NCBI GenBank assembly: GCA_043800255.1
Contig: JAZDNF010000009.1
Location: 60,813 to 124,812, forward strand
DNA length: 64,000 nucleotides
Reading direction: 5' to 3'
Source of the DNA: Candidatus Altiarchaeota archaeon
Lineage (GTDB): Archaea > Altiarchaeota > Altiarchaeia > IMC4 > SCGC-AAA252-I15
Part shown: positions 939 to 64,000 of the stretch, piece by piece
How positions within the stretch are numbered: position 1 is the stretch's first letter
How the letters are laid out: each line of letters opens with the position of its first letter
The notes under the pieces: generated by a model
What the model saw: only the letters and a program-made list of their open reading frames with translations
What the model was told of the DNA's origin: nothing
Database searches by the model: none
Program-made: the position numbers and the translations under genes

Positions 939-939
939 C

Positions 940-1170: not shown

Positions 1171-1319
1171 CTGGCTATTATGGACTTCACGACGTTTGTC
1201 GGCCGCTTCTTGACCCAGATGTTCGACCTCTTCTCCTTGCACTTCGAGCACTTAAGCTTGTTTGACAATATCTTCGCGTAATCTTCCTCTGATCCGCATT
1301 CCATGCAAACGTAACTCAT
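1167..1319 (-). CDS. rpoP: RNA polymerase subunit P (Rpo12), 50 aa; below the ORF-track cutoff
   Basis: Manual translation MSYVCMECG...KCSKC...IWVKKRP (Zn ribbon); ATGA overlaps with both neighbours; canonical position after rpl37ae. Confidence 0.92.
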   Translation of the reverse strand: MSYVCMECGSEEDYAKILSNKLKCSKCKEKRSNIWVKKRPTNVVKSIIAR

Positions 1320-1561: not shown

Positions 1562-1600
1562 TTTCTAGTCCTATAATTTAAGGAAAGGGTATTAAAAAAC

Positions 1601-2374: not shown

Positions 2375-3102
2375 TCTTGCTCACCCTCGTTTTTCAGACT
2401 CTCGCACAGAGCCGCATTCTGCAGCTCGTTTATCTTCCTGCAGCCGTCCAGCGCCATGCCGAACGCCTTCTTGAACTCGTCCTTCGAAAGCTTCCCGTCC
2501 ATCTGAAGCAGGACTATCTCCCCCGTATGGGGGTTCAAGGCTACGGGGACGTCGCTTTCGCCGAAGTTGTCCTCCTCCTTAGCGAGGTCGACTACTATTT
2601 CACCGCCCACCTTGCCTGCAGCGCAGGACGCGATTATGCCCTTCATAGGGATTCCGGCATCCACCAGCGCGAGGGCTGCGGTCGTCAGGCCGGCGCATCT
2701 CGTGCCAGCGTCAGCTTGCAGTATCTCGATGAAGACGTCAACGACGGCGTTCGGAAAACGTTCCAAAAGCACGACGTTGTTCAACGCCTCAGTCGTTATC
2801 TTCGATATCTCAACGGACCTTCGGTCAGGCCCAGGCCGCTTCCTGTCGTCCACAGAGAACGGCGCCATGTTGTAGACGCACCTGACGATGCACTTCGTCG
2901 GGTCCTGCAGGAACTTAGGGTACAGGTAGCGGGGACCGTATACGGCAGCCAGCACCTTGTTGTTGCCCCATTCAACGTAGGCGGACCCGTTAGCCCTCTT
3001 CAGCACGCCCACCTTCATCTTAACATCCCTTAGCTCGTCAGGTTTCCTTCCGTCCAACCTGACTCCGTCCTTTATCAGGACAATGTCATGTTTCTTTGCC
3101 AT
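2371..3102 (-). CDS. rrp41: Exosome subunit Rrp41 (start probably MAKK at 3102)
   Basis: [32 protein letters not shown]. Confidence 0.95.
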
Positions 3103-3106
3103 CTTA

Positions 3107-3748
3107 TTACCTCTCATCTAATAATCGTGATATTCTGTCTGTCAGGCCTGAACTCTGCGCCTCAGCCTCTATCTTCTTGACGACTGACGCAACGTATGCT
3201 GCATTCTCGCCCTTGATCCACACGTAGCCGTTCTGGCCGACAACCATCCTGGAATTTGTTTTTTCCCGTATCATGTTAAGCATCGACCTCTTCCTGCCTA
3301 TCACGCGGGGTATCCTCCTCGGGTTCACCTCGACTATGAGCCCGCCTTCAAGCTTGAAAGGGCCCTCGATCAGCGACTCGTGAACCTCGTTCACTGAGGT
3401 TATCTTCCCGCTCAGTATGTCACCAACGTTGTAGAATCTGGTAAGATCCTCCTCCAGCGGCCGTCTGGTCACAGCCTCCCCGAACATCGTGCACTGGTAG
3501 GGCGAATTCATGTCGATGGCCCACCTGCCGGTGAGAACGGTCTTCACCACGCCTATTATAACGTCGTTGACCTTCGGGACGTACGCCCCTGAGGAGGGCA
3601 TTATACTGACATTTTTTCCGTCAACCCGCGCTATCCCGAAGCGCGTCGAGTAGAACTTACCGGCCGCCCTGATGCAGTTGTCGTCGCATATGATATCGGT
3701 ACCCAGAAACTGTCCAGGCAGCACTATTTCCCTGTCGTTTATTTCCAT
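3107..3748 (-). CDS. rrp4: Exosome RNA-binding subunit Rrp4
   Basis: S1 plus KH domains ([28 protein letters not shown]). Confidence 0.93.
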
Positions 3749-3751
3749 TTT

Positions 3752-4444
3752 TTATTTTAGGATTTTTATCTTAATCTCGCCGTGAGTCGCGTTGTTCAGC
3801 TTTTCGAACATTTCGTCCCTGATTCCCGCGGGAATCTCGATCTTACAGTACTGTTCGCCGCTGACCCACTGCTCCTGCCTGACCTCGCCGAACTCCTTTA
3901 GGACGTGATAGAGTTTGCCGGCATAGTTTGCAGGTATCTTTATCGCAACCTCGGTGGTCTCGAACTTTATCGGTATGATTGGCTTCAGCTCCTTCAATAT
4001 TTTTTCGATCTGCTCCTCCGCCGACTTCGCGGCGTCAACCTTTACCTTGGCCTCCTCCATCGCCTTCTCGATCCTCGAAGGCGGATGCGGGAGCTTGGTC
4101 TGCGGGTTTATCGAATTCCTCGCTATTATGTTGATTATCTTTTTCCTTCGCTCTTCGAGAATCCTTGCCTTCTGCTGAGTGGTCAGGTGCAGCTCCCCCT
4201 TCTTGAGGATCTTCGTGACTGCTGTGTTCAGCTGCGCGTCTCCGAAGACCTCCTTCATAACCTCCTCTGAGGCTTTCTCCCCGCTCGCAGCGTCCTTGAA
4301 TACGCTTTCCGCGGCCAGAATCTCGTCCAAGGGGATATTAACACCAGACCGGTATTCTAAAGCCTTGTCAGGATCGACAAAGATTTCAAACGTGTGACCG
4401 TGTGTTTTGAGCCTGGCGATGACCGCGTCATCCAGACTTGTCAT
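3752..4444 (-). CDS. sdo1: Ribosome maturation factor SBDS/Sdo1
   Basis: VIARLKTHGHTFEIFVDP, INPQTKLPHPPSRIE. Confidence 0.95.
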   Translation of the reverse strand: MTSLDDAVIARLKTHGHTFEIFVDPDKALEYRSGVNIPLDEILAAESVFKDAASGEKASEEVMKEVFGDAQLNTAVTKILKKGELHLTTQQKARILEERRKKIINIIARNSINPQTKLPHPPSRIEKAMEEAKVKVDAAKSAEEQIEKILKELKPIIPIKFETTEVAIKIPANYAGKLYHVLKEFGEVRQEQWVSGEQYCKIEIPAGIRDEMFEKLNNATHGEIKIKILK

Positions 4445-5213
4445 CTTCTACTTTTTCTGATTCTGATTTCTTTTTTCCCTTCCTTCTGCTCTCCAACTCG
4501 CTCTTCAAATCATCAAGTGATTTTCCGATCTCGTCTGCAGACACTCTTGTATATTTGTTCTTCGATTCTATGGATATCATGTCAATGTTCTCTTTCTTCA
4601 GCTTGCTCTCGCTTACCGCGTTCAATCCGAAGAGGGCGACCTCCAATGCCTGCTTCCTGCTCAGCCCGTCCTTGTATTTCTCCTCGAACACCTTCTCGAC
4701 GTCCCTCTTGCCCATGCCAATGGACGTTGCCTTGTACTCGGTGTAGGCGCCGCTCGGGTCTGACTCGAAAACGTGAGGCCTATTGTTGACTCCAGCTATC
4801 AAGAGCGCGGTTCCGAACGGCCTGGCGCCGCCGAACTGCGTATAAAGCTGCTTTATGTCACACAGTTCCCTCGTAAGCTGCGATACTGTGATAGGCTCAT
4901 TGTACGCGAGCCTGTGCCTCTGCGCCTTAATCCTGGCCTCCTCTATAAGCCTTCTGGCGTCCGCAACCAGTCCCGATGTGGCTATACCAATATGGTCGTC
5001 TATCTTGAATATCTTCTCGACGGAGCTAGGTATTATCAGTGATGTGGCGACGTTCTTGTCCACCGCCAGGAGCACGCCCCCCGCATAGGATATGCCAACA
5101 GCGGTGGTGCCTCTCTTGACAGCCTCCCTCGCGTATTCTACCTGGAATAGACGCCCATCAGGGCTGAAAACCGTTATAGCTCTATCATAAGCAGCCGGAC
5201 CTTGCGGATACAT
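4428..5213 (-). CDS. psmA: Proteasome alpha subunit
   Basis: YDRAITVFSPDGRLFQVEYAREAV signature. Confidence 0.97.
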   Translation of the reverse strand: MYPQGPAAYDRAITVFSPDGRLFQVEYAREAVKRGTTAVGISYAGGVLLAVDKNVATSLIIPSSVEKIFKIDDHIGIATSGLVADARRLIEEARIKAQRHRLAYNEPITVSQLTRELCDIKQLYTQFGGARPFGTALLIAGVNNRPHVFESDPSGAYTEYKATSIGMGKRDVEKVFEEKYKDGLSRKQALEVALFGLNAVSESKLKKENIDMISIESKNKYTRVSADEIGKSLDDLKSELESRRKGKKKSESEKVEDDKSG

Positions 5214-5260
5214 TTTATCACAAATACCTTAATATTTACACATTATAGCTTATATATACA

Positions 5261-5776
5261 TCATCCGTCCAGAATGCGTTTTCTGTAGATTGCAAACGCT
5301 TTTATGAATCCTGGGGCGAATTTTGAAGGTCGCTCCCTGATAAGCCGTATGATCTGTCCAGGTTCCATGAATTCAATGCTTTTTATCTCCTCCGGGTTGA
5401 AGGTGAACGGGCCGCTGTGCCGTGCGACATATAGCATGCTGTTCTCCCTGTCGGTTCTAGTGTACTTTCTGAACCATCCCACCTCCTCCAGATGTACTTC
5501 TGTCCCAGGCAGCTCCTCCTTAAGTTCCCTCTCCGCCGCCTCCCTGTAGGTTTCACCAGGCATGGGATGCCCTGAGACCGAGCAGCCGTAGAGGCCTGGT
5601 GATACGTCCTTCAGGTCGCTCCTCTCCGCCAGCAGTATCCTCCCCTCATTATCCACTATGAGGATGTGAGAGCATCTGTGGATTTTCCCATTGGTTGAGT
5701 GGCATTCTCCCCTGGTTGAGAAACCGACATGCCTGTCGTCTGCGTCAAATACTTCGAACACTTCATCTGATGGCAT
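5261..5776 (-). CDS. NUDIX hydrolase (YfcD/IDI-1-like)
   Basis: Nudix box GHPMPGETYREAAERELKEELPG. Confidence 0.85.
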   Translation of the reverse strand: MPSDEVFEVFDADDRHVGFSTRGECHSTNGKIHRCSHILIVDNEGRILLAERSDLKDVSPGLYGCSVSGHPMPGETYREAAERELKEELPGTEVHLEEVGWFRKYTRTDRENSMLYVARHSGPFTFNPEEIKSIEFMEPGQIIRLIRERPSKFAPGFIKAFAIYRKRILDG

Positions 5777-5794
5777 CTTCTGTCTGCAGAAACC

Positions 5795-6289
5795 CTAATC
5801 GAACAGCCTTCTGACGACGGCAACCCTCTCCCCCAGGGATTTGTGCCTTGTCTCCTCATCGCCTTTCGTGTAGCCTGAATACTCCAGTATCTCGGATACC
5901 TTGATGTCCACTAGGCTTGCAGCCTGCGTGAGGGATATTCCTGACGAGTACATCCTAGAGCCTACCTTAACCCTCGCCTTGTACACGAGGTTGCCGTGGA
6001 ATAGGCCGTGCTCCTCGTCAAACGACTCTATGGAGGATATGGCTCCAGCGAGGTCGCCCTTCTCCAGCTTCTCCCTGACATAGTATATCAAAGTGTCTAT
6101 TTTCTCAGAAAAGTGTACTTTGGACAGCACCTTGTTCAGGCAGTAGGATATTATCGCAAGATTTATGATGTCGTCAGACTGTTCGACGACTGCCTCCATG
6201 CTGTATCTCTTGGAAAGCTTCCTCAGTTCAAGGGCGTCCCTGGAGTCTATCGCCTTCTTCAGGCCTGTGATGTCAGTCTTATTTTCCAT
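5795..6289 (-). CDS. Hypothetical protein with C-terminal HTH-like segment
   Basis: Overlaps the upstream isomerase stop; GISLTQAASLVDI helix-turn-helix-like motif. Confidence 0.6.
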   Translation of the reverse strand: MENKTDITGLKKAIDSRDALELRKLSKRYSMEAVVEQSDDIINLAIISYCLNKVLSKVHFSEKIDTLIYYVREKLEKGDLAGAISSIESFDEEHGLFHGNLVYKARVKVGSRMYSSGISLTQAASLVDIKVSEILEYSGYTKGDEETRHKSLGERVAVVRRLFD

Positions 6290-7184
6290 GTTTGAGGCCC
6301 CAGCTGAATTTTTCAGTCAGGAGGTGGAAGGCCTCCTGCGGCGGCATTATGCCTTCCTCAGTTATTATGACGTCAACGTACTCTGACTGCGTGATGTCGA
6401 ACGCCGGGTTCCTTATCTTCACCTTCGGGATCCTGGTCACCTCGTCCGGGTCCCTCTCCTCTATCTTGACCATCTTGCCTATGATGCTCTCAGGCGAGAA
6501 TTTTATCGACTCGGCTGCGACAATCAATGGGATGTTCATCTTCTTCGCCGCCAATGCTATCTGCGCGGTCCCTATCTTGTTGACGATGTCGCCGTCAGAG
6601 TATATGGTGTCTGCTCCGACGATGACCTTGTCCACGTTCAATTCCTGCATCATATAGTAGACTGCGGAGTCTATTATGAGGGTTGTGGGGATGCCGTGCT
6701 TTGACAGCAGGCTCGCGGTGATATAACCCTGGTGTCTGGGCCTGGCTTCGGTGCACACCGCCTTTATCTTCTTGCCCTGGTCCCACGCTTTCATCAGGAT
6801 CTGGGCGACTGTGTCGCTCTGGCAGTGGGTGAGTATCGTCTCCCCTGGGTTTATTATGCTCGCGCCTATGGTCGCTATCCTCTCAAGAGACTCGTTCAGA
6901 CGCCTCAGGTAGTCTGCTATCTCCGCCGCCGTCTTCTGCCTGAAGTCTTCCTCGTCCCTGTTCTTATCGACTAGGTATAGCACATAGTTGACCGCGTTCG
7001 GCAGGCTTATGGCGGACGGCCTGGCTTTTTTGAGCTTGGAGCCAGCGCGTCTCATGTCAGCAGGGCTTCCGCCTTCCCTCATGACAGCTTCCAGAGCCTC
7101 TACAGCCGCTATCGCGATGTCTCTTGCGCCTCTGACCTTCATGCTCCTGATCTTCTCAGCGACAACGTCTACCTTCGCCTTCAC
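6279..7184 (-). CDS. Ribose-1,5-bisphosphate isomerase (eIF2B-like family)
   Basis: VRGARDIA, RPSAISLPNAVNY, THCQS, NKIGT, NPAFDIT; GTG start. Confidence 0.85.
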   Translation of the reverse strand: MKAKVDVVAEKIRSMKVRGARDIAIAAVEALEAVMREGGSPADMRRAGSKLKKARPSAISLPNAVNYVLYLVDKNRDEEDFRQKTAAEIADYLRRLNESLERIATIGASIINPGETILTHCQSDTVAQILMKAWDQGKKIKAVCTEARPRHQGYITASLLSKHGIPTTLIIDSAVYYMMQELNVDKVIVGADTIYSDGDIVNKIGTAQIALAAKKMNIPLIVAAESIKFSPESIIGKMVKIEERDPDEVTRIPKVKIRNPAFDITQSEYVDVIITEEGIMPPQEAFHLLTEKFSWGLKHGK

Positions 7185-7219
7185 ACTTAACTATGGTATT
7201 GTGTCATATATAACGGGGC

Positions 7220-8365
7220 ATGAAATCTGAACTGTCAAGCGTTGACATCTACGTTCTCACTCGAGAATTGGACCAGCAGCTTAGGGGCAGGAGGTTCGAC
7301 AAGTTCTACCAGATAGCTGAGAAGACGCTGAAGATAAGGCTGAGGCAGGTCAAACAGGACCTCATAATAGCGAAAAATTATCTGTGCCTGTCAGACTTCG
7401 ATAGGAAGTCGCCGGAGCGGCCGTCATCCTTTGCCATGCAGCTGAGGAAGCACCTCTCCGGCGGAATCATAGAATCAGTCAGCCAGCACAGCTTCGACAG
7501 GATTGTCATATTCTCCGTCAACGTGGGAGATAGAAGATACAGCCTCGTGGCCGAGCTCTTCTCTAAGGGCAACATCTTCCTGTTGGATTCAGAGTGGACT
7601 ATACTAGGGCTTCTGGAATGGCAGAAGTGGAGGGACAGAACGCTCGGCGTCGGAGTGAAATACAGTTTCCCACCAAGCCAGATGAACCCCTTCGAATCCG
7701 ATCCAGATGCTGTTGGCGTGGTGATTCTGAAATCTGACAAAAGGCTTGCCGCAACAATTGCAACAGAGTTGAACCTGGGAGGCTCCTATGCTGAGGAGAT
7801 GTGCATCCTCTCCGGCGTTGACAAGAACAGGACGGCGTCAGATTTGACCAAGTACGAGGGTGAGAGCATCCTCAAAGCATTGGGCGAGTTCTCGAAGACA
7901 GTCAAAGAGGCCGGGAACCCGGTTATAGTATTAGACGGGGGTGAGCCGGCTGACATCTCACCCATGATGCTGAAAAAGTTCGAACGCCTTGAGGTGAGAA
8001 AAACAGAAACATTTAACCAGGCTGTTGATGAATTGTTCAGCCCCAGGGATATGATGCAATCACAGTCTGCAGCAGAATCAGAGGCAACCGAGAAGGAGGA
8101 GAAGCTGGCGAGGATCAGAAGCGAGCAGGAGTCAGCCATAAAAAAACTGGAGGAGAAGGCCAGAGTGTCAAAAAATCGGGGAGACCTAATCTACCAGAGC
8201 CTGAACGAGATACAAACAGTAGTCGACCAGATAAGAAAAGCCAGAGACGCAGGCCTCTCAGACAAGGACATAATGGAAAAATTCGAACAAGGAAAAAAGA
8301 AAGACATAATCGAGGCCAAACTCGTGAAAAGCCTCAAAAAAGACAAACTCGTCCTAGACCTGTAG
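7220..8365 (+). CDS. rqc2: NFACT/Rqc2 (ribosome quality control) N-terminal half only, 381 aa
   Basis: PSSFAMQLRKHL, FDRIV, ELFSKGNIFLLD, LNLGGSYAEE, ETFNQAVDELF; the ORF ends after the first coiled coil. Confidence 0.8.
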   Translation: MKSELSSVDIYVLTRELDQQLRGRRFDKFYQIAEKTLKIRLRQVKQDLIIAKNYLCLSDFDRKSPERPSSFAMQLRKHLSGGIIESVSQHSFDRIVIFSVNVGDRRYSLVAELFSKGNIFLLDSEWTILGLLEWQKWRDRTLGVGVKYSFPPSQMNPFESDPDAVGVVILKSDKRLAATIATELNLGGSYAEEMCILSGVDKNRTASDLTKYEGESILKALGEFSKTVKEAGNPVIVLDGGEPADISPMMLKKFERLEVRKTETFNQAVDELFSPRDMMQSQSAAESEATEKEEKLARIRSEQESAIKKLEEKARVSKNRGDLIYQSLNEIQTVVDQIRKARDAGLSDKDIMEKFEQGKKKDIIEAKLVKSLKKDKLVLDL

Positions 8366-8366
8366 C

Positions 8367-8423
8367 TCACTTCTTCTCCCACTGTCGGAGTTTCCCGACG
8401 AGAAAGAGGCGGCATTCCGCCTT
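8367..8423 (-). repeat. Degenerate copy of the last ~18 codons of the hps-rraA gene, overlapping two short stem-loops
   Basis: Reads K-----L--V--L--WEKK* in register with the true gene end; the last 17 nt match at 15 positions; hairpins at 8384-8399 and 8407-8422. Confidence 0.45.
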
Positions 8424-8445
8424 CGGCTCCAGCCACCTTGACGCA

Positions 8446-9720
8446 TTACTTTTTCTCCCACTTAAGGAGGTGTGTGACTTTGCTCAGGGTTGAGCCTTCC
8501 TTGATCTCCTTCCGGATTCGATTTTCTTTTTCCAAAATGTCCATCGCCCTGTTCGCTGTTTCAACAGCCTTTTCCTTGGGGATGACTACCACGCCATCCG
8601 AGTCGCCTATAATCCAGTCGCCTGGTTTCACTGGGACGCCTGAGACCATGATGGGAACGTCAATCTCCCCCAAACCTCTGGGCTCGCCGGCTGTCGGAAT
8701 CATCAACCTAGCGTAAACTGGGAGGCCGAGCTTCTGGATTTCCTCCGTGTCACGGCAGGCGCCGTCTATCACAACACCTGACAGCTTCTTCTGGACTGCG
8801 GACTGCGATGCCAGTTCGCCCCACACTGCCGGGCCGACTCCGCCTGCGTCTATGACGATGACATCGCCCTTCTTCGCAACATCTATGGCCTCAACAGTCT
8901 TCGCCCAGTCGCCGGGATACACTCTGACCGTGACAGCCTCGCCGACCATCTTCCCCTCGGATAGGGGGTAAATCCCTTTCAGCTCGCCGGACCTGTGCAT
9001 CGCATCGGATATGTTGGCTGCGGAGACCTTCAGTAGTATTGACCTCACGTCCGTCGACCTTTTGAAGAGCGCGGTCTTCACCCCTCTCTTGGACAGCATC
9101 GCCCTCCTGATGGTTGAAGCAGCCTTCCCAGGGTCCTCTGCTTTGGTGATTGCTCCGCCGACTATTACAATAGAGGCGCCTGACTTTACGACGTCGACCA
9201 CTGTCTCAGAGTTTATGCCGCCGGCGGCTGCTATCTGAACTTGAATCTCCTTCGCAACCTGTCGGACTCTCTCAGCAGCGTCGATGCCGAGCATCTGCTC
9301 GTCTATCGGCGTGTGGACTCCAACGTAGTCTGGATTGAATTTTGCGACCTCCTCCGCCCTTCTGACGTAATCCCTCACGCCTATCAGGTCGACTATGATC
9401 TCGGCGCCGAAGTGCCTGCCGGCGTCTATCGACTCTTTTATTGTCTGGTCTGAGGCGGCGGCGCACACGTTCACTATGTCGGCGCCTGCCTTCGCTGCCG
9501 ACTCCACCTCAACCCGGCCGGCGTCCATGATCTTCATGTCAGCGACGATAGTGTGCTTCGGGAATCTCTCCCTCAGCGCTCTGACGACGTCAAGGCCTTC
9601 AGCCTTTATCAGCGGCGTTCCAGCCTCGATTATGTCAACGTGTTTCGCAGCCTTCTCTGCCACCTTCAATGCCCGGTCAAGGTCGACAAAATCCAGAGCA
9701 AGCTGTAGGCGCGGTTTCAT
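8446..9720 (-). CDS. hxlA: 3-hexulose-6-phosphate synthase fused to an RraA/HMG-aldolase-like domain
   Basis: LQLALD, IIEAGTPLIK, ADMKIMDAG, then NISDAMHR, AVWGEL, IIGDSDGVVVIP. Confidence 0.9.
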   Translation of the reverse strand: MKPRLQLALDFVDLDRALKVAEKAAKHVDIIEAGTPLIKAEGLDVVRALRERFPKHTIVADMKIMDAGRVEVESAAKAGADIVNVCAAASDQTIKESIDAGRHFGAEIIVDLIGVRDYVRRAEEVAKFNPDYVGVHTPIDEQMLGIDAAERVRQVAKEIQVQIAAAGGINSETVVDVVKSGASIVIVGGAITKAEDPGKAASTIRRAMLSKRGVKTALFKRSTDVRSILLKVSAANISDAMHRSGELKGIYPLSEGKMVGEAVTVRVYPGDWAKTVEAIDVAKKGDVIVIDAGGVGPAVWGELASQSAVQKKLSGVVIDGACRDTEEIQKLGLPVYARLMIPTAGEPRGLGEIDVPIMVSGVPVKPGDWIIGDSDGVVVIPKEKAVETANRAMDILEKENRIRKEIKEGSTLSKVTHLLKWEKK

Positions 9721-55103: not shown

Positions 55104-56453
55104 ATGGAGAAGCAGGTCAGGTGGGTTTACAGGGCTGGAAAGGGCGGCAGTATGGAGAGCATCCAGGAGGAGGCTGGCCTGTTCAAGCCTATGGGAGATG
55201 CGCAGAAGTGGTATCGTAAGAGGTTTGTCAGCCCCATTGCCGTGGAGAGCCTGCCTGCCATCAAGGAGCATCCTGGTGAGTTCTTCCAGAAGCAGGCTGA
55301 TGGATTGTATCATAAGCTCGAGGTCGAGCCGTATGACATCAGAGAGGAGTTTGCGAGGGTGAGGCCTGATGACATCCTCAACCCGGGGGAGGAGCAGCAG
55401 GTCTCATGGAGTCCGTCTGACAGGGGAGTGCAATCTTCACCAGAGTTGGCCTCTGCCAGCGGCGTGGAGTCTTCCAGCGGGTTGATTTCCGACAGGGAGA
55501 GGGGGTATATCGGCAGTTTCCTGTCGGGTTTGAGGGGGTCGATAAAGTCGGAGCCTGACGGCGTGAGAAAGAGCGTTTCGAAGCTTATCAAACAGATCGA
55601 TAAGGCGTTTGGTAGGCGTGAGACCTTGGATGAGTTCGAGGCCGGCCTGTCTAAACTGTCAGTGGACGATCAGTTGAAGCTGTCGGCAGCCTTGAGTGGG
55701 GAGGTCCGGTCTGACAGTTGGTTCAGCGGCAGCCAGGATAAGGCTGATAGGAGCGGGTTCATGTCAAGGTTGTATAACATCAACCTGAAGTCCATCGGCG
55801 GTAAGTCGAAGATAAAGGCTGACATCCCTGACGAGTTTAAGGGGGCGTTTGAGGTCTTGAGGCCTGATTTTTTCAGCATGATGGATCGGGACTCTTTAGC
55901 TCTCATAGAGCAGATGGAGAGGGCGAGGTCTGCGAACATAGCATCCTCCGATCCTTCGGCGGTGAATGCCATGATGGAGCTTTCGCTTCCGATGTTGAGG
56001 GCGCAGATTGAGGAGTCTTTGCGGTTCTTGGACAGGCCTGACATTGGGAAGAGCACGGGGGATGAGTTTGACAATATCATGGGAATCTACGGCATCGCTA
56101 AGACGGCGGGCATAACGCATAAGAACGAGCTGAGCCTTTTGAAGCTTTCGGAGAGGCCGGAGCATCTGGTGGGGGTTTTCAAGTTTTTTGACAGCCGGAT
56201 TAAGGGAGTGCAGGAGGAGGCCGGCGTCGGCGATGATTTCGTGAGTTCTTTCATGAGGAGGAGGGCGTTCTTCTTTGACTCGAATGGGATGCCTTATAAG
56301 CTGTCGGCTGAAGACTTGAAGGAGATAGTAAAGTCTAAGCGGGGGGAGGATGATGTCCGGCGGATTGGCACTAATCGGGAGGCTGATGACGTGCATCGTC
56401 TCGGCACCAACTTCAAAGCCTTGGGGAAGCTGATAAAGGTCTATTCCCGCTGA
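55104..56453 (+). CDS. Orphan 449-aa protein
   Basis: Long ORF whose stop overlaps the trm1 start; no family recognised. Confidence 0.65.
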   Translation: MEKQVRWVYRAGKGGSMESIQEEAGLFKPMGDAQKWYRKRFVSPIAVESLPAIKEHPGEFFQKQADGLYHKLEVEPYDIREEFARVRPDDILNPGEEQQVSWSPSDRGVQSSPELASASGVESSSGLISDRERGYIGSFLSGLRGSIKSEPDGVRKSVSKLIKQIDKAFGRRETLDEFEAGLSKLSVDDQLKLSAALSGEVRSDSWFSGSQDKADRSGFMSRLYNINLKSIGGKSKIKADIPDEFKGAFEVLRPDFFSMMDRDSLALIEQMERARSANIASSDPSAVNAMMELSLPMLRAQIEESLRFLDRPDIGKSTGDEFDNIMGIYGIAKTAGITHKNELSLLKLSERPEHLVGVFKFFDSRIKGVQEEAGVGDDFVSSFMRRRAFFFDSNGMPYKLSAEDLKEIVKSKRGEDDVRRIGTNREADDVHRLGTNFKALGKLIKVYSR

Positions 56454-57562
56454 TGATGGACGTTTCCGAGTTTTCTGAGGGCAGCGTTCGGCTGAAGATC
56501 CCCGCAGTCGAGAGGCTCCTTAGGAAGAACCCGGTCTTCTTTAATCCTCTTATGGAGTTGAACCGTGATATCTCTGTAGCCTCCTGCAGACTTCTTAAAC
56601 CAAATGACTTCTGCGACGCTCTCGCGGGGAGCGGGGCGAGGGGCTTCCGTGTCGCCAGGGAGGCTGGCGTCGACGTCACCTTGGTTGACATGAATTCCAC
56701 GGCTTGTGAATTCATGGAGGAGAACGCGAAACTTAACAAGTTAAAGGTGAATGTCGTCAACGATGACTGCACTCATTTCTTGTCGGGGAGGAAGTTCGAT
56801 TATATCGACGTTGACCCGTTCGGCCCTCCGGTCCGCTATCTGGACTCTGCCATCCGAGCCTGCAGGAAGAGGTCTTTTCTCGGCGTCGCCGCCACGGACA
56901 CCAGCGCTCTCTGCGGCACCTATCCGCGGGCGTGCAAACGGAAGTATGATTCCGTCTCTCTCCGGACTGACTGTTATGATGAGCTTGGTCTTCGCATCCT
57001 TCTCGGTTTCATCGCCCGGTCTGCGGTCCGTTATGATTATGGCGTCTCGTTTCTCTTTTCCCACTGTACGAGGCATTATTTTAGGACTTACGCGGAGTTG
57101 AACCGCGGCCGTTCTCATGTTAGAAAATCTCAGGACAGTCTCGGCTTCGTCCAGCATTGTTTCAAGTGCCTTTGGAGAGGTTACAGGAAACTTGAGGAGC
57201 TGGAGCAAACGTGCAAGTGTGGTTCTCCTCTCTCGACTGCAGGCCCCTTATGGACTGCCGAATTCGCCGACCCTGTCTTCTGCGGGAACCTCATAGGGGA
57301 GCTTGAGTCCGGGTCTTATGGCACAAAGTCCTCAGCTGTGAAGCTCATCAGCGCAGTCTCCGATGAGCAGCCTATCCTCACACCCTATTATGACCTGCAC
57401 AAGATAGCTAAGCGGGAGAGGAAGCCTGCACCAGCCCGGGACGCCTTCTTCAAGAAGGTAACCGGTGGAGGCCACAGGATAACGCGGACTCATTTCTCAG
57501 ACCTCGGCATCAGGTCTGACGCTGACGTGGACGAGATTGCAGGATATCTGGGCAAACTTTAG
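56453..57562 (+). CDS. trm1: tRNA (guanine26-N2)-dimethyltransferase
   Basis: FFNP.MELNRD, LAGSGARG.R, DVDPFG, TDTSALCG, CKCG, GPLW, RTHF. Confidence 0.95.
   Translation: MMDVSEFSEGSVRLKIPAVERLLRKNPVFFNPLMELNRDISVASCRLLKPNDFCDALAGSGARGFRVAREAGVDVTLVDMNSTACEFMEENAKLNKLKVNVVNDDCTHFLSGRKFDYIDVDPFGPPVRYLDSAIRACRKRSFLGVAATDTSALCGTYPRACKRKYDSVSLRTDCYDELGLRILLGFIARSAVRYDYGVSFLFSHCTRHYFRTYAELNRGRSHVRKSQDSLGFVQHCFKCLWRGYRKLEELEQTCKCGSPLSTAGPLWTAEFADPVFCGNLIGELESGSYGTKSSAVKLISAVSDEQPILTPYYDLHKIAKRERKPAPARDAFFKKVTGGGHRITRTHFSDLGIRSDADVDEIAGYLGKL
57424..57562 (+). repeat. Copy 1 of the trm1 3'-end direct repeat (in-gene copy)
   Basis: 99/118 nt identical to 59095-59212 by manual alignment. Confidence 0.92.
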
Positions 57563-58224
57563 CTCATGCGCATCGCTTTTCTTATCTTTCCGAGGTTGAA
57601 GTTGGGATGGGTTCTATTCTTGTCTTTGATCATCTTCAGTTCATTCAGCGCCATCTCCGGGCTTTTATCCCATTTTTTGAGGCTGCTTTTTATGACCGTC
57701 CAGTCAAATGTGGGGGAGTTGTAGTTCACGATGATATTGTATATGTCTTCCATATCCTGGGATTTCGCATGGTATACCAGGTCTGCTGAGCTTCTCTCCA
57801 GGAGCATCTTCGTCGCCAGCAGGTCCTCAACTCTCGGGAGTGGTAGGCTGTCCAGTATCTGGCTGCGGTCCCATAGTTCCGAGTCGAATTCCAGGGTGTC
57901 GCATACGCCTCCAACCCACAGTTCAACGTAGTTTTTTATCTCTTCTTCGAGGGGCGACTTGGAGAACAGGTATCTCTTGAAATGGTATTCAGTGTTCTCT
58001 CCCTCGAAATGCCAGCCGATCCTCCTCAGGTTGTTTTTGATCTTCCGCAGAACGTCTTTTGGTACATCCTCTCTGATGACGAAGTCGATGTCCTTGGTCG
58101 ACCGGGGTTGGACTAGGGCGGACACGGCCACGCCGCCTATGATGACGTGTTCTATGTGGAATCTTTTGAGTATCCTTGATATCCGTATGGCTGTCTCCTG
58201 CGCTTTGTCGGCTTCGATTTTCAT
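57559..58224 (-). CDS. Nucleotidyltransferase, AbiEii/DUF6036-like (putative toxin)
   Basis: IIGGVAV...PRSTKDIDF; PRVEDLLATKM; QDMEDI. Confidence 0.75.
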   Translation of the reverse strand: MKIEADKAQETAIRISRILKRFHIEHVIIGGVAVSALVQPRSTKDIDFVIREDVPKDVLRKIKNNLRRIGWHFEGENTEYHFKRYLFSKSPLEEEIKNYVELWVGGVCDTLEFDSELWDRSQILDSLPLPRVEDLLATKMLLERSSADLVYHAKSQDMEDIYNIIVNYNSPTFDWTVIKSSLKKWDKSPEMALNELKMIKDKNRTHPNFNLGKIRKAMRMS

Positions 58225-58994
58225 AGGATGCCAAGCTTTTCTTTTATCGGTTTTATCAGCTCTGGGGGGAGGCCCATCCTCTTCTTATCGGCATGAGAGA
58301 GGTCTGGGAGGTTCGGCGCATATGGTCTCAGCCCGGATAGGATGCCGATGATGAAGTCTTTGACGTGCCATTTTTCTGATCTTTCGATCACGTATGCCCA
58401 GTCGGTGTTTTGTTCCCGGAGCATGATGGAGAGCAGGTCTTCTAGGGGGAGCTGGCCTTTTTGTACTAGGTGCGCGTATGCGAGTATCGCGTCTTCGCGT
58501 TCGGGTATTCGGACGCCTCCGTAGTCTGTTTTTTTGTAGAAGAGTTTGTATTCTCTGACGTAGTCGGCCTTTTTGTCCTTGGTTTGTTTTTCTGCGAATA
58601 CAAAGACGCGCTCGTCGTATCTGTCGAACCCGTACAGTTTCGTCAGAAAGGGCCCGACGAGGACCGTGTCTATCCCCTCTCTTCTGAATTTGCCCGACAT
58701 CTCCAGCAGCCTGTCTTCGATCCCTGTTGTCTGTTCTTTTGAGGTTTCGATGAGTTCTTTGAATTTTCGCATGAATTTTGAGCCCATCACCGGCTGGTAT
58801 TTGGGGTATAGGCCTTCTCCGACGGGCTCTACGAGGCCTGCTTCTGCGAGGGTGTCTATCGCAGTTGCCGCCGTCGACGTGCTTGTCTTCGTCTGCGACG
58901 CGTAGTCTTTCTTGTGCATCGGCTGCGGGTGCTCTACCATGTACGCCAGGATCTTTACCGTGGGTTTTTCCCCTAATATGTCGGAAACCTGCAT
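58221..58994 (-). CDS. Winged-HTH plus degenerate NTase-like protein (putative antitoxin/regulator); start re-set to 58994
   Basis: wHTH (TSTAATAIDTLAEAGLVE); TTTAAATA box about 30 nt upstream of ATG 58994; ATGA overlap with the NTase gene. Confidence 0.65.
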   Translation of the reverse strand: MQVSDILGEKPTVKILAYMVEHPQPMHKKDYASQTKTSTSTAATAIDTLAEAGLVEPVGEGLYPKYQPVMGSKFMRKFKELIETSKEQTTGIEDRLLEMSGKFRREGIDTVLVGPFLTKLYGFDRYDERVFVFAEKQTKDKKADYVREYKLFYKKTDYGGVRIPEREDAILAYAHLVQKGQLPLEDLLSIMLREQNTDWAYVIERSEKWHVKDFIIGILSGLRPYAPNLPDLSHADKKRMGLPPELIKPIKEKLGIL

Positions 58995-59094
58995 CTTGCG
59001 TATATACATAGGGTGAGGCGAGTATTTAAATGTTTCGATTTTAAGAAACAATTGTTTTCGAACATGAAAACATTCTCGGACAGCGTAAGAAGAG

Positions 59095-59224
59095 GCCTGC
59101 ACCAGCCCGGAACACCTTCTTCAAGAAGGTAACGGATGGCGGCTACAAGATAACGCGAACACACTTCTCAGACTTGGGCATACGATGCGACGCCGATGTG
59201 GACGAGATTGCAAAACTAATCTGA
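59095..59224 (+). pseudogene. trm1: Displaced, diverged trm1 3' end (copy 2), with no start codon
   Basis: Encodes PAPARNTFFKKVTDGGYKITRTHFSDLGIRCDADVDEIAKLI*; in-frame stop upstream at 59042-59044. Confidence 0.9.
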
Positions 59225-59246: not shown

Positions 59247-59594
59247 TTGGCTGAGACTGCGGGCAAGGGGGGCGAAAAGTATAAGGTCAAAATCTGTCCC
59301 AGGTGCGATGAGAAGAATTCTCCGAGTGTTGATGTCTGCCAGAAGTGCGGGACCACATTGGACATAAAAACCCTCCTGGAAGAGGATGAAAGAAGAAACA
59401 CTACTATGGGCGTGTTGTCGACGATACTCTCGGATGACCGGGTTAAGGAGGCGATAGCTGCCAGCATAAAATCGCAGGAAGAACACGCCCGAAAAACCCA
59501 ACAGGAGACAATATCAGACCAACTCATCAAACTACTCAACCCCGGAGCATACGACCTACAACTGACAACACAACCCACAAAAACCAAAAAATGA
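59247..59594 (+). CDS. Double zinc-ribbon protein resembling the C-terminal tail of archaeal tyrosine integrases (possible remnant)
   Basis: KICPRCDEKN...CQKCGTTLD followed by a helical tail; TTG start; lies just after the repeat copy. Confidence 0.5.
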   Translation: MAETAGKGGEKYKVKICPRCDEKNSPSVDVCQKCGTTLDIKTLLEEDERRNTTMGVLSTILSDDRVKEAIAASIKSQEEHARKTQQETISDQLIKLLNPGAYDLQLTTQPTKTKK

Positions 59595-59693
59595 TAAAAA
59601 CAGAGTCCCGGGAGAGGTTTTACTGTTGCTTTAAACCCCTAGTTATTACTTTAGTTTCCATATATAAATACGTATATGCTAAAGTTTATACTA

Positions 59694-59852
59694 ATGAAAC
59701 TCCAAGAATCAAAGGGCAAGTACAGCATATTCCTACCGACAAGAATAGTCGAAGGATTTAGTTGGAAGAAAGGCCAAGAGCTTGAGGTTAAGATACTTGG
59801 TAAAGATAGATTAGAAATTAGGAAAAGACCGCTTAGAACTCAAGAGAGTTAA
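59694..59852 (+). CDS. AbrB/MazE/SpoVT-like small DNA-binding protein (52 aa; not in the ORF track)
   Basis: MKLQESKGKYSIFLPTRIVEGFSWKKGQELEVKI pattern; TATATAAATA at 59661-59670. Confidence 0.7.
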   Translation: MKLQESKGKYSIFLPTRIVEGFSWKKGQELEVKILGKDRLEIRKRPLRTQES

Positions 59853-59927
59853 ATAAACAGATTTTAATTAAAGTATTCTCTAATCTTTTAAGGATATAGT
59901 TTTTTTATAACACTTGGAGGGGTTGGA

Positions 59928-60920
59928 TTGGCAAAGGAATTTAAGAAAAAAACTGATTTTTCAGTCCCTAGAGGTTCAACAGAAGTAGATTCTGATAAAT
60001 GGGAGGATGACACATATGCTTCAAAAATATCCTATGAGATTACCCAACAAGGACGAGAAGGGATAAGAGTATTGTCAGCTAAAAAAACAAACTATACTCC
60101 TCATTATGGAGTATGGTTAGACAAAAAAATAGATTATTCTAATTGGTATAAGTGGTTCTCTTCTGCTTTTAAAAAATTAGCCAGAATATTTGGAAAAAAG
60201 ATAGAAACAGCGGAAGATATAGTCCAAAGATATGAAAAGGAATTGCAAGATATGTCAAAAACAATCACTGAACTTACTTTAAAATATGAAAGAGCAAAAA
60301 ACGAATTGGAACAAAATAAAAAAGACTTTGAATTAGCAAGAAAATTAGTTGACAATATTGATGTGTATGAGAAAGGATTAGAGGAAATACGAGATGCTAT
60401 TAATAAGTCATATGATGAGAATTCAAGACTAGAGGGATTAATAAAACAAAAAATCATCGAGAATAGATGGGTTCTTGGACTAGACTGTGAAGTTCAAGCC
60501 AAAGAAAGACGTATAGACAATCAGACTTCACTTGATTTGCATATTAAAACTGATTTAGGAGAAGATAGAGTTTTTGAATTCAAAAGTCCGAATATCCGTC
60601 CTTTCTTTAAAGAGAATCAGCAGGGTAGGTTTCACATAAATTCTGAAATTGCCGAGGGATTAAATCAATTAATGATATATCTAACAAAAATTGATTTTTG
60701 GGGTAGAATCAAAGAGGGTGGCATTTATGGAGTGACAAAACCTGCAGGGGTTGTAATAACGGGCTATAAACTTCCGGAGGAAGATATTGATGTTCTTAAA
60801 ACATGGAATTTTCATTTAAGACCACATATAAGATTCGTTACTTACGATGAACTCATAAGAAGTGCTGAAAATAATCTGGACATTATTAGAAAAGCCAGGC
60901 AATTGGACAAGGTAGATTAA
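59928..60920 (+). CDS. sduA: Shedu (SduA/DUF4263)-like nuclease with an N-terminal domain and coiled coil
   Basis: NRWVLG, D...VFEFKSP, GLNQLMIY, GVVITG, HIRFVTYDELI; GGAGG RBS and TTG start. Confidence 0.75.
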   Translation: MAKEFKKKTDFSVPRGSTEVDSDKWEDDTYASKISYEITQQGREGIRVLSAKKTNYTPHYGVWLDKKIDYSNWYKWFSSAFKKLARIFGKKIETAEDIVQRYEKELQDMSKTITELTLKYERAKNELEQNKKDFELARKLVDNIDVYEKGLEEIRDAINKSYDENSRLEGLIKQKIIENRWVLGLDCEVQAKERRIDNQTSLDLHIKTDLGEDRVFEFKSPNIRPFFKENQQGRFHINSEIAEGLNQLMIYLTKIDFWGRIKEGGIYGVTKPAGVVITGYKLPEEDIDVLKTWNFHLRPHIRFVTYDELIRSAENNLDIIRKARQLDKVD

Positions 60921-62149
60921 TGATTGAAGATAAATCTAAAATTGGGGTTCTCTGTAGAAAATTCATTGAGAATTATGATGAGTATACGAAAGTAGATTTC
61001 AAGTCTACGCTTGATTTATCCTCCTCTGAGAATAAAGCCGAACTCTGTAAATTGATTTGTGCGATTGGTAACTCAAATAGCCCTAAATATGATAACATTG
61101 GCTATATAATCCTAGGTGCTAAACGTGGTGAACTCATTGGCGGTATTAATGAACTAGCTAAGGATTCTACCTCAGCTAGTATCCGTCAGATTGTTGCTTC
61201 TTTTTTAGATTATCCCGTAAAGTTTGAGATTCTGGCCTTTAAGGATGAGGTAAAAGGGTTATGGGGAGCTATTGAAATCTTCGATGACCCCCAGAATCGA
61301 CCTCTTAAATTCAAGCGTTCTGTTGGGACATTGGGCATAAAAAAAGATGATGCATTCATCCGGGATGGTGACTCAATTAGACTAGCAAATCCTCGGGAGA
61401 TAGAAGAAATTACTAGTCGAAAATTCACATTAAGAGTTCCGTCACTCAATATTGCCTTCTTTGATGGTAAGGATTACACTAAATTCCTACTCGTTGAGCC
61501 AGAAGTAGTAAAAATTATTGAAAAAAAGATGCCAGAAACACCTCTTCTAAAGCCGTCTCCAATGATAGAGCGATTCTCTGGGCTATCAGAGACAGTTAAT
61601 AGGATTAATGCTGTTTGTGCCATTATCCCTAGACCATTATGGGTGGGTAAAAGCCAAAGCGAATATGAAGCTGAGATGGGAGAATATAGAGAGTTAATGC
61701 GACAACTGCCAATCCTCACTTTGGTTTTGAGGAATGACGGAACAGCTCGTGCGAGAGATATTGATGTAACAATAAGTTTTCCACGAGAGATTGAAATTAT
61801 GTTGGAGGACGATATTCCAGATGAACCATCTAAACCTGGGCGTTCTCTATTACTGAAACCGTCATATACTCCCTTACCCGACTTTCTTGGTATTAGCCCC
61901 ACATTAGAAGAACTAGATGAAGAAAAGTTACTGTCATTTTATGTTAAAACGCTAAAGCATACAAATAAAGCAGAGTGTAGATTTGCCATAACAAATGAAA
62001 CTCCTGAGGGGAATTATTCTATTAAGTATGAGGTTCATTGTGAGGAGGATATCAAACCCACAAAGGGAGAGTTAAAGCTAATTGTTAAAAAGAAAATTAG
62101 AGAAGAAATTAAATGGATTTCAGATGGGGGGATACACTTAAGTAAATGA
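60920..62149 (+). CDS. Schlafen/AlbA_2 domain protein with a C-terminal Ig-like domain
   Basis: EYTKVDFK, ELCKLICAIGN, GYIILG, FIRDGDSIRLA; C-terminal LVLRNDGTARARDIDVTISFP...YSIKYEVHCE; TAATG coupling. Confidence 0.8.
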   Translation: MIEDKSKIGVLCRKFIENYDEYTKVDFKSTLDLSSSENKAELCKLICAIGNSNSPKYDNIGYIILGAKRGELIGGINELAKDSTSASIRQIVASFLDYPVKFEILAFKDEVKGLWGAIEIFDDPQNRPLKFKRSVGTLGIKKDDAFIRDGDSIRLANPREIEEITSRKFTLRVPSLNIAFFDGKDYTKFLLVEPEVVKIIEKKMPETPLLKPSPMIERFSGLSETVNRINAVCAIIPRPLWVGKSQSEYEAEMGEYRELMRQLPILTLVLRNDGTARARDIDVTISFPREIEIMLEDDIPDEPSKPGRSLLLKPSYTPLPDFLGISPTLEELDEEKLLSFYVKTLKHTNKAECRFAITNETPEGNYSIKYEVHCEEDIKPTKGELKLIVKKKIREEIKWISDGGIHLSK

Positions 62150-62379
62150 ACCCCTGACAATTCTATTTATTGGGTGGGTTCTTTGGCACTTTGTCCCTGG
62201 CTTTGGGTGCAATCCTTCTGTGGAAGGGCAACGTCCTTGGGTGGGGTCTTGTTGCAGTCGGAATTGCGAACTACGTAAGAATCTGGTCGGGGATTAAGGA
62301 GATGAAGCATGAGGCATCCGTTTATTTAGATTTTTCATCTCCTCTTTTGCCGTGTCAACAAGCAGATCATTTACCGTAA
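62146..62379 (+). pseudogene. Small 2-TM membrane protein gene with an in-frame TGA at codon 4
   Basis: ATG 62146 overlaps the Schlafen stop; reads MNP*QFYLLGGFFGTLSLALGAILLWKGNVLGWGLVAVGIANYVRIWS. Confidence 0.55.
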
Positions 62380-62827
62380 CACTCATAACTATGGAGATAA
62401 ATATAACCATCAATAATCCATGGATAGTAGCCCTCTTGTCTAGAGGTGTCGGAAGGTCATCAATCAATATCTGTGTCATTATGACAGCCACTAATAGTGT
62501 CATTGGGATTATGTAAATGAACATTATCTTCAAGATTAGGTTTTTTTCCCAATACACCCAATACTCATTCTTCATACCCCCCAGCATCTTGTGGGTAAAC
62601 ATGACACAGAAAACAAAGCAATCTACAATATAAATCGATACAAAGATGAAAGTACTTATCAAAATAGATATTATAAGTTGAGAACTATCTAGTGGTTTGA
62701 AACCAAAGAATGCACCGTGCAGAACATATCCCACCGCAACAAATCCAAAGATTATAAAAGGTATGGAAATCAGCTTGTCTGGTTCTTTAAATACCTCCTG
62801 GAAATTTTTGAGAGATTCGTCCCACAT
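62294..62827 (-). CDS. Multi-pass membrane protein (about 4 TM) inserted between duplicated gene ends
   Basis: MWDESLKNF start with an AT-rich upstream region; four hydrophobic segments. Confidence 0.65.
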   Translation of the reverse strand: MWDESLKNFQEVFKEPDKLISIPFIIFGFVAVGYVLHGAFFGFKPLDSSQLIISILISTFIFVSIYIVDCFVFCVMFTHKMLGGMKNEYWVYWEKNLILKIMFIYIIPMTLLVAVIMTQILIDDLPTPLDKRATIHGLLMVIFISIVMSVTVNDLLVDTAKEEMKNLNKRMPHASSP

Positions 62828-62888
62828 AGTATATACTGAATATTTCGTGTATAAAAAACTCTTCACACATACGATAATCCTATTGTTG

Positions 62889-62984
62889 AAAGACAATGTC
62901 ATCGGCTGGGGTCTTATCGCCGTCGGGATTGCGAACTATGTGAGGATCTGGTCGAGAACTAAGATGGAAAAATCTGGAGATTGA
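62889..62984 (+). repeat. Second, diverged copy of the 3' half of the small membrane gene
   Basis: 62889-62954 vs 62224-62289: 53/66 nt identical; KDNVIGWGLIAVGIANYVRIWS vs KGNVLGWGLVAVGIANYVRIWS. Confidence 0.88.
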
Positions 62985-62993
62985 GGATTAGAG

Positions 62994-63179
62994 ATGGAAG
63001 TTAAGATTGAAAAATGTAGTTATCCGAACTGTAATGATAGCGCTGAACATAAGCATCATATTCTTGGAAAAGATAACCTTGACCCAAAGAAGCGGATGAG
63101 AATAGCAGGGTTATGTAAACGTCATCATGAAGACATCACATACTTAAATGGCTTTTGTGTAGTGATAATTCTGCATTAG
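62994..63179 (+). CDS. Small HNH-like Zn-binding protein (possibly truncated)
   Basis: CSYPNC...HKHHILG...LCKRHH. Confidence 0.5.
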   Translation: MEVKIEKCSYPNCNDSAEHKHHILGKDNLDPKKRMRIAGLCKRHHEDITYLNGFCVVIILH

Positions 63180-63181
63180 AA

Positions 63182-64000
63182 TTATATTGTGCAGGGATTA
63201 TCTTCTAACGTATGAGAGTCTACCATACTTACTAATTTTTGAAATGCGCATAAACCCTTAGTAGTACAGTATGGATCATATATCACCTTAACGGGAGATA
63301 ATGATCTACATTCAATCTTCTCGTAACTTTGACCACAATCTAAATTAGTACGACAAGGGATTTCACCAGGTTCTCTTTCTATTGGTGATGCTACACCATC
63401 AGCTTTAGCAATCTCTTCAACATACCATTCTATGTCCTTAGAAGCCTGGGTTGCATAATAGGTTCCAGTTGTAATATGGTCTTGTATAAAATCATCACAG
63501 TATTCGTCCAATTCATACAAGGCTAAGTAAAGACCTGCTGAACCCTCTGTTAAATATTCATGCACCGTTGAATACTTCGCTGGAGCTTTCAGTTCCTTAA
63601 CTTTATCTGCTATCATGAGTGACCTACCAGACAAACCATTGGTCAGGATACCACCTTCAATTACTTTGCACATTTCTGTTCTGGTTATTCCGCCTGATGC
63701 ATAGGTAGTAAGAACTCCAACAGTACTGGTTGAAATACTGTTTATCTCATCTAAAAGGACACGAACGTTGTTTTTGTAAGTACTGGCTTCCTGTTCTAGA
63801 GTTAGACTGGTAGTCTGTTCCATCGTAGTTTGCCTTACAGTGTTGGTGTGGGTCGGAGTTGGATCATCTCTCCCAAGCAACGCAAATATTACCATAATCG
63901 CCATAATTATAAGACCTACTTTCAGCAGATTCTGAACCGATTGTGCAAAACTTATTCTCTTTTTTGGAGTCCCTAGTTTTTTAGATGGTTCAACATCTTC
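63182..64000 (-). CDS. Membrane-anchored extracellular protein with a Cys-rich C-terminus (5' end outside the window)
   Basis: Frame stays open to 64000; TM LLKVGLIIMAIMVIFALLG; CRTNLDCG...C...PYC...C. Confidence 0.7.
   Translation of the reverse strand, partial: EDVEPSKKLGTPKKRISFAQSVQNLLKVGLIIMAIMVIFALLGRDDPTPTHTNTVRQTTMEQTTSLTLEQEASTYKNNVRVLLDEINSISTSTVGVLTTYASGGITRTEMCKVIEGGILTNGLSGRSLMIADKVKELKAPAKYSTVHEYLTEGSAGLYLALYELDEYCDDFIQDHITTGTYYATQASKDIEWYVEEIAKADGVASPIEREPGEIPCRTNLDCGQSYEKIECRSLSPVKVIYDPYCTTKGLCAFQKLVSMVDSHTLEDNPCTI

Follow-up and report, generated by a model that had tools for sequence, protein, structure and literature searches.

Overlapping Shedu and Schlafen-Ig genes in an archaeal defence island are probably two single-gene antiviral systems

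When genes for two different kinds of defence nuclease share a stop/start overlap in an archaeal chromosome, do they constitute one two-part system or two systems lying back to back? The question is raised by a locus in a 64,000-nucleotide stretch of a Candidatus Altiarchaeota genome (assembly GCA_043800255.1, contig JAZDNF010000009.1, positions 60,813 to 124,812; hereafter the window, in whose own numbering the features of this locus are given). Here, a gene for a Shedu (SduA) nuclease (gene 1, 59928..60920) is followed on the same (+) strand by a gene for a Schlafen (Slfn) nuclease with an immunoglobulin (Ig)-like C-terminus (gene 2, 60920..62149). The two are joined by a TAATG (60918..60922, + strand), with the junction reading GTAGATTAATGATT, wherein the TAA of gene 1 ends and the ATG of gene 2 begins at 60920, resulting in a 1-nucleotide (nt) overlap, and a Shine-Dalgarno-like AAGGT element lies ~8 nt upstream. 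An earlier interpretation made from the DNA letters alone (the sequence-only reading) had delineated the two open reading frames (ORFs) and their overlap exactly as we find them, and had proposed that they form a single antiviral system with two effectors. We find that the genes are probably co-transcribed and translationally coupled, and consider it likely that they are two self-sufficient single-gene antiviral systems, placed back to back in an archaeal defence island, and not one two-part system.

The product of gene 1 is a 330-amino-acid (aa) protein translated from a TTG at 59928. This start is well supported, as it is the first start codon past an in-frame TAA (59889-59891), is preceded at a distance of 5 nt by a Shine-Dalgarno-like GGAGGGG (59916..59922, + strand), and gives a predicted N-terminus (MAKEFKK...) in register with the Met-Ala start of its homologues. 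Profile matches, motifs and fold identify the protein as a Shedu nuclease of the PD-(D/E)xK type: Pfam SduA_C (PF14082) covers aa 172-310 and scores 36 bits (cut-off 27), hits also come from four PADLOC SduA models (best E=1.7e-7), and the motifs D...EFK, NQLMIY, and VTYDELI, from which the sequence-only reading had drawn the same DUF4263 assignment, are all present. Its homologues reach E-values of about 1e-80, and in 16 full-length family members D203, E217, K219, and Y251 do not vary and Q247 hardly does, together making up the PD-(D/E)xK set; these residues were matched to D249 and others of the B. cereus protein via the order of the motifs, not by superposition. Its AlphaFold2 (AF2) model has a predicted local distance difference test score (pLDDT) of 82.7, and in a Foldseek comparison with the Protein Data Bank (PDB) its top six matches are all Shedu proteins (E. 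coli SduA, 8ps4_A, E=1.2e-6; B. cereus 8ti9, E=1.5e-5; also 8ti8), with a target-normalised template-modelling score of up to 0.62. A sequence profile of the family run against PDB sequences returned coiled-coil noise only, and the Shedu identity thus needed the Pfam match and the comparison of folds.

The protein comprises an N-terminal β4-α domain (aa ~1-90), a helical hairpin linker (aa ~95-163), and the DUF4263 nuclease domain (aa ~170-330). In the model, four strands (18-22, 30-38, 44-52, and 62-65) and a helix (70-87) are followed by the helical hairpin (95-163), and the N-terminal domain finds weak Foldseek matches in Pur-alpha, SP_0782, and EF_3132 (probability 0.5-0.66, E 0.4-1.1), among them ssDNA binders of the PC4-like kind. 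Type 1A Shedu proteins consist of an sPC4/Whirly-type N-terminal domain, a linker and DUF4263 (Gu et al.). Gene 1 resembles such proteins from B. cereus (8ti8/8ti9) and E. coli (8ps4) in its DUF4263 fold, in the order of N-terminal domain, linker and nuclease, and, in its model, in a β-β-β-β-α unit of the kind described for sPC4/Whirly-type Shedu N-terminal domains. The model and these weak fold matches tentatively suggest that the region taken in the sequence-only reading for an unrecognised domain plus a coiled coil is better described as the N-terminal domain and helical linker of this type. As with known Shedu proteins, gene 1 lies in a defence island and has relatives inside restriction-modification (R-M) loci. 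It differs from the solved versions in sharing only 12-17% identity with them, in belonging to a small subfamily and in its archaeal host, and is known here from sequence and model.

Gene 2 encodes a protein of 409 aa with an ATG start and two parts, namely an N-terminal Schlafen (AlbA_2) nuclease domain (aa 1-170; 60920..61429, + strand) and a C-terminal putative sensor module (aa 171-409; 61430..62149, + strand). The former is matched by Pfam SLFN_AlbA_2 (PF04326; aa 21-156, score 30.5 bits, cut-off 25.3) and bears the catalytic motif Ex4(E/D)xK as E21-YTKV-D26-F-K28. Among its relatives, whose E-values reach 1e-31 to 1e-40, E21 and K28 never vary and D or E occupies position 26, and the motif is present in ~30 further representatives of the family. 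The family profile also matches the structure of CbCash (9ylu), a CRISPR-associated Schlafen tRNase, over aa 7-160 (E=2.8e-7). In the AF2 model (pLDDT 82.1), the C-terminal module is composed of a short β element, a helical insert (aa ~205-262) and an Ig-like β-sandwich (aa ~265-400), over which pLDDT is about 90. Foldseek matches the sandwich to the Ig-like domains of the integrin alphaX/alphaV ectodomain (E=1.9e-6), and also to cobra venom factor, cohesin, and YcnI. The domain assignments of the sequence-only reading, i.e., AlbA_2/Schlafen followed by an Ig-like C-terminus, are hence borne out by both profile and model.

A Schlafen nuclease with an Ig-like C-terminal β-sandwich is the composition of the published prokaryotic Schlafen class pSlfn5, whose member RorSlfn5 from Raoultella ornithinolytica is a phage-sensing tRNase with a sensor reported to resemble integrin ectodomains and complement C5 (PMC13056530); the sequence-only reading was accordingly right that such fusions have been described as anti-phage proteins. 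Gene 2 shares with RorSlfn5 an N-terminal Slfn domain with Ex4DxK near the N-terminus (E21/D26 as against E15/D20) and an Ig-like sandwich that best matches integrin ectodomains, the two being compared by reported fold resemblance, not sequence. The two are also of similar size (409 aa as against about 380 aa), and the relatives of gene 2 are stand-alone genes. It is set apart by the helical insert before the sandwich, by its predicted status as a tRNase and by its archaeal host, which implies that any trigger would be a protein of an archaeal virus. For the Slfn domain itself, CbCash (PMC13462974) is the best sequence match among solved structures, including the catalytic stretch E..KVDLK. 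However, CbCash is fused to a Csx15 cA4 sensor and acts downstream of type III CRISPR, whereas gene 2 has the Ig-like module and shows no link with CRISPR within the window.

In an exhaustive search of representatives, 54 of the 62 clusters with the C-terminal domain of gene 2 also have the Slfn N-terminal domain, many of these proteins being ~380 aa long with the motif at positions 13-17. The other clusters have a PIN_4, a DUF4062 (TIR-like) or a transmembrane (TM)-bearing N-terminal domain, or are fragments. Given these fusions to N-terminal domains besides Slfn, the Ig-like C-terminal module looks, from its distribution in protein architectures, like a portable unit, putatively a virus sensor whose effectors can be exchanged. 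The combination with Slfn is not rare, and bacterial plasmids carry such genes, annotated as 'ATP-binding protein'; a tblastn search of plasmids with gene 2 turned up a single match, weak and partial. Scans of viral contigs for both the gene 1 and gene 2 families recovered no confirmed relatives. The module, for which there is no Pfam model, was also noted in P0023, P0075, P0110, P0127, P0139, and P0152, and this type of module displays a conserved motif of the form N-x-G...A-x-D-I-D-V...F-P.

Both genes lie in an AT-rich, horizontally acquired island (59595..64000, unstranded) that extends past the end of the window. Its GC content from ~59.6 kb to the window end is 0.30-0.41 as against 0.50-0.57 (about 0.53) elsewhere in the window, confirming the island noticed in the sequence-only reading. 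The GC content at third codon positions (GC3) is 0.24 in gene 1, 0.31 in gene 2, and 0.24-0.40 across the genes of the island, in comparison to 0.60-0.71 (about 0.67) in six host genes. These low values relative to the host genes indicate that both genes are recent foreign DNA. The gap between their own GC3 values was not accepted as a sign of separate origins for the two genes, as it is estimated at only ~2 standard errors. In its gene content the host looks like an archaeon, with Trm1 and 3-dehydroquinate synthase II over the curated cut-offs and a match to archaeal RqcH under its cut-off.

Is the pairing conserved in other genomes? This is what the sequence-only reading had set beforehand as a test that could refute it. 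Protein and metagenome searches for the gene 1 family yielded 33 non-redundant loci with 202 flanking genes (about 40 loci were found in all). A third homologue search, run with a mixed alignment, contributed little more (7 hits among 8,000 candidates scored). From the side of gene 2, its relatives occupy 7 distinct loci, all of them lacking an SduA ORF (L001/L002, L003-L006, L007, L008, L018, and L057; the proteins include P0002-P0005, the product of a Nannocystineae metagenome-assembled genome locus, and P0024+P0022), and in most cases the relative is preceded by an intergenic region of its own, 88 nt to 0.6 kb long. From the side of gene 1, Schlafen genes occur nearby in 2 of the 33 loci (L041 and L029), and neither is an orthologue of gene 2, with which they show no pairwise similarity and have only the family in common. 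The genes immediately downstream of sduA homologues in the 33 loci are instead a diverse lot: they code for 2-TM, multi-TM, and Zn-ribbon proteins, an N6_N4 methylase followed by ResIII, a ResIII helicase, HTH-M78, TIR-like, DUF5677, or winged helix-turn-helix (wHTH) proteins, and in other loci the following gene is convergent; in L036 a gene for an SMC-like ATPase lies ~170 nt downstream. On present evidence, which comprises the gene orders of these loci, the adjacency of gene 1 and gene 2 is not conserved across genomes, and their juxtaposition would represent accretion in an island. The claim of a two-effector system is thereby not upheld.

The loci of the relatives are rich in R-M and other defence genes, and several have features of their own. 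L041 is the sole other locus with a Schlafen gene directly after an sduA of the gene 1 subfamily; its string (372-3154) is made up of the C-terminal part of a TaqI_C-type methylase/specificity protein, the SduA homologue, a gene for a 224-aa Slfn-only protein with an intact Ex4ExK, and, 9 nt on, one for a 234-aa protein of unknown type, which could be a separate sensor for the Schlafen. L029 (1940-10791) is a compact mobile defence island, with the SduA homologue directly upstream of a type III R-M pair (N6_N4 methylase and ResIII), a wHTH-Schlafen gene ~480 nt upstream of sduA, and a large serine recombinase beyond. In L054 (6103-6921) the SduA homologue is split over at least four reading-frame pieces and is a degraded copy. 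Near the gene 2 relative P0003 in L001 (542-5980) are genes for an 867-aa protein with PHP and SMC/AAA_21-like regions and for a dual-specificity-phosphatase-like protein, and this may be another defence neighbourhood.

A further set of neighbourhoods places the nearest relatives of the two genes on one kind of mobile element. The closest orthologue of gene 2, sharing about 41-50% identity with it, is found in L057, 13 nt after an 884-aa gene, on a backbone (1-7254) coding for Cas1, a wHTH protein, three small proteins, and the 884-aa protein. This orthologue (6001-7214) was called as two ORFs, P0024 and P0022, on account of a single frameshift near 6385-6400, reflecting either a pseudogene or an assembly error. 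The same backbone recurs in L010, L019, and L020 (about 3400-9085), with E-values between 1e-8 (the smallest protein) and 1e-246 (the largest, of 876-884 aa). At the end of the backbone where L057 has the gene 2 orthologue, these three loci have, in convergent orientation, the closest homologues of gene 1 together with a 2-TM gene. Since they occupy the same backbone end, the comparison of these loci indicates that the nearest relatives of gene 1 and gene 2 are alternative, separate cargo of one slot in a Cas1-bearing element; in the window both types of cargo are brought together. For the 884-aa protein, the signals of a DNA polymerase are faint (Pfam E=0.039; PHROG E=0.0023) and the PDB gave no match, and 'casposon' is therefore used here as a label of resemblance only.

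Several observations pull against reading the two genes as independent. The 1-nt overlap and common strand almost certainly signify joint expression, and a true two-component system would look alike. Both Schlafen genes among the 202 flanking genes lie less than 0.5 kb from sduA, which hints weakly at a preference for proximity. A same-strand gene starts within ~20 nt of the sduA stop, often overlapping it, in ~16 of the 27 loci with downstream sequence (about 60%, as a raw count), and the gene 1 subfamily could thus be one that likes a partner. Finally, the L057 sequence stops 40 nt past its Schlafen gene, and the genes that follow are outside view. In a more far-reaching reading, the gene 1 subfamily would not be strictly autonomous but would furnish the first cistron of a coupled cassette with a swappable effector or sensor, and the pair in the window would be a cooperating DNase and tRNase module, in which, for example, the Ig-like sensor detects a virion protein and gates both; we regard this as unlikely.

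A true two-component Shedu-Schlafen system, in which the proteins interact or signal and both genes are needed for defence, is by our estimate unlikely. In such a system the Ig-like module of gene 2 might sense the virus and license tRNase and DNase alike, or the products of Shedu cleavage might activate the Schlafen. It would account for the TAATG coupling with zero intergenic space, the like foreign composition of the two genes and the recurrence of Shedu-family genes near Schlafen-domain genes in L041 and L029. Yet orthologues of each gene are found without the other, and those two loci, one with a Slfn-only and the other with a wHTH-Slfn protein, differ from the window in architecture and position. 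The overlap itself is generic for sduA and not specific to a Schlafen partner, for sduA homologues overlap or abut at least six unrelated downstream genes via TAATG, ATGA, GTGA, or TAAATG (L022, L040, L044, L009, L019, and L049). There is a precedent for a two-gene Shedu in KELShedu (PMC12577705), which has a DUF4263 nuclease and, like gene 1 and gene 2, is bicistronic with almost no intergenic space. However, its partner KELA is a 110-aa dsDNA-binding protein encoded upstream, whereas gene 1 is coupled to a downstream 409-aa predicted nuclease with its own sensor, and the small AbrB-like ORF found 76 nt upstream of gene 1 (see below) is not conserved in relatives. The tight spacing seen across the family also raises the idea of a modular bicistronic cassette in which the gene 1 subfamily always supplies the first gene and the second position is filled by one of various interchangeable effectors or accessories, gene 2 being one of many. 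Some of the partners are indeed effector-like, viz., 2-TM (L010/L019), multi-TM (L009), TIR-like (L042, a weak match of 18 bits), and Schlafen (L041) proteins. But others are non-effectors, such as the N6_N4 methylase and ResIII of type III R-M or the HTH-M78 and wHTH regulators, several loci have a convergent gene or none, earlier work already records Shedu inside R-M systems and defence islands as a matter of co-localisation, and tight spacing is common in compact genomes; we hold this cassette to be decidedly improbable.

A role outside defence, with the pair or gene 2 alone serving as an AlbA_2 nucleic-acid-binding regulator or in maintenance of, or addiction to, the island, has some footing in the 30.4% of prokaryotic Schlafen genes that lie away from known defence genes, in the AbiEii/AbiEi-like pair and duplicated attachment-like repeats that adjoin the island, and in the relatives that ride on Cas1-bearing mobile elements. 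Such a role is nonetheless very improbable, with the catalytic Ex4DxK and PD-(D/E)xK residues intact and conserved, the architectures matching those of experimentally validated defence proteins, and the neighbourhoods of the relatives harbouring R-M and other defence genes. The reading as two independent systems is favoured by each family having its own sensor module and being documented as a single-gene system. Shedu is a documented single-gene system, often found within R-M or BREX loci and mobile elements, with 47 archaeal proteins listed in a survey; prokaryotic Schlafens occur in four archaeal phyla, with 3.9% being fused to Ig-like domains. The window pair consists of members of these two known kinds, both already catalogued in archaea, and the part of the sequence-only reading that saw novelty in archaea stands only for the combination: the literature searched contains no description of a Shedu-Schlafen pair or system.

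Building on what is directly observed at the locus and among the relatives, i.e., the gene structures, domains, motifs, predicted folds, foreign composition and non-conserved pairing, we propose, mainly by analogy, how two independent systems might operate. The predicted oligomeric state of the gene 1 product is a homo-oligomer formed via the DUF4263 PD-(D/E)xK domain, as in B. cereus and E. coli SduA. Its β4-α N-terminal domain and helical linker would hold the nuclease inactive until invader nucleic acid is sensed, possibly as single-stranded DNA or free DNA ends, upon which the activated protein would cut the invader DNA. In gene 2, the Ig-like module would bind a viral protein and thereby turn on the metal-dependent Ex4DxK RNase, by analogy with RorSlfn5, and the cleavage of tRNA anticodon arms would lower the virus yield. 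The overlap would then ensure co-expression and hence a layered defence phenotype at the levels of DNA and translation, without a physical or regulatory partnership being implied.

Several small ORFs surround the pair. The 76 nt upstream of gene 1 separate it from a 58-aa SpoVT/AbrB (MazE-like) ORF (59676..59852, + strand; Pfam MazE_antitoxin E=2.6e-4, 21.3 bits, below the 24.7 cut-off), whose GC3 of 0.36 is island-like. No conserved counterpart of it was found beside sduA homologues; it is possibly a transcriptional regulator or the first cistron of the gene 1 transcript, and its membership is uncertain. Downstream, a 69-aa 2-TM ORF with a TTG start (62170-62379) begins 21 nt after gene 2, followed by a 202-aa multi-TM ORF on the - strand (62294-62902) and a 61-aa ORF with a CxxC...HH pattern (62994-63179). 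An 88-nt direct repeat of 78% identity (62211-62298 and 62876-62963), between whose copies the 202-aa ORF lies, codes for the second of the two TM segments in a small 2-TM protein; the 69-aa ORF constitutes one copy of this duplication, and the other stops 9 nt short of the 61-aa ORF. The arrangement looks like a gene pair, for a 2-TM and a Zn-finger protein, split apart by an insertion or duplication. The sequence-only reading had considered the 2-TM gene and the 61-aa ORF, the latter as HNH-like, to be perhaps parts of the system. We rejected the HNH identity as having no profile support, and likewise the 2-TM ORF as a component, as it has neither profile support nor conservation; no counterparts of the 69-aa, 61-aa, or 202-aa ORFs were found in related loci.

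On its upstream side the island begins just past a 131-nt direct repeat of 82% identity (57411-57541 and 59082-59212), whose second copy preserves, in register, a relic of the trm1 (56453-57562) 3' end. The copies enclose a 1.67-kb insert with an AbiEii-like nucleotidyltransferase gene (57559-58224, - strand) and an HTH/AbiEi-like gene (58221-59102, - strand), and repeat and insert together are the footprint of a site-specific integration into the trm1 3' end. A 115-aa zinc-ribbon protein (59247-59594), with weak matches to OapC-like proteins and the phage family phrog_13558, is encoded between the trm1 relic and the AT-rich block and has an intermediate GC3 of 0.55. Rfam and tRNA scans of the window gave no matches, and the window accordingly has no tRNA attachment site. 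A scan of the window for sigma-70 promoters and intrinsic terminators, a type of scan ill-suited to archaea, performed no better than on shuffled sequences.

To our knowledge, experimental characterisation in an archaeon appears to be lacking for Shedu and for prokaryotic Schlafens alike. The locus offers an intact, probably co-expressed Shedu and Schlafen in an archaeal chromosome, which makes it useful for asking if the bacterial mechanisms carry over to archaeal viruses; were the pair to prove cooperative, it would be the first Shedu working with a second nuclease. Perhaps more useful than the pair are two patterns that emerged around it. The Ig-like C-terminal module of gene 2 would provide a signature of a shared virus sensor with exchangeable effectors, and the alternative cargo on the Cas1-bearing, casposon-like element points to such elements as shuttles of defence genes between archaea.

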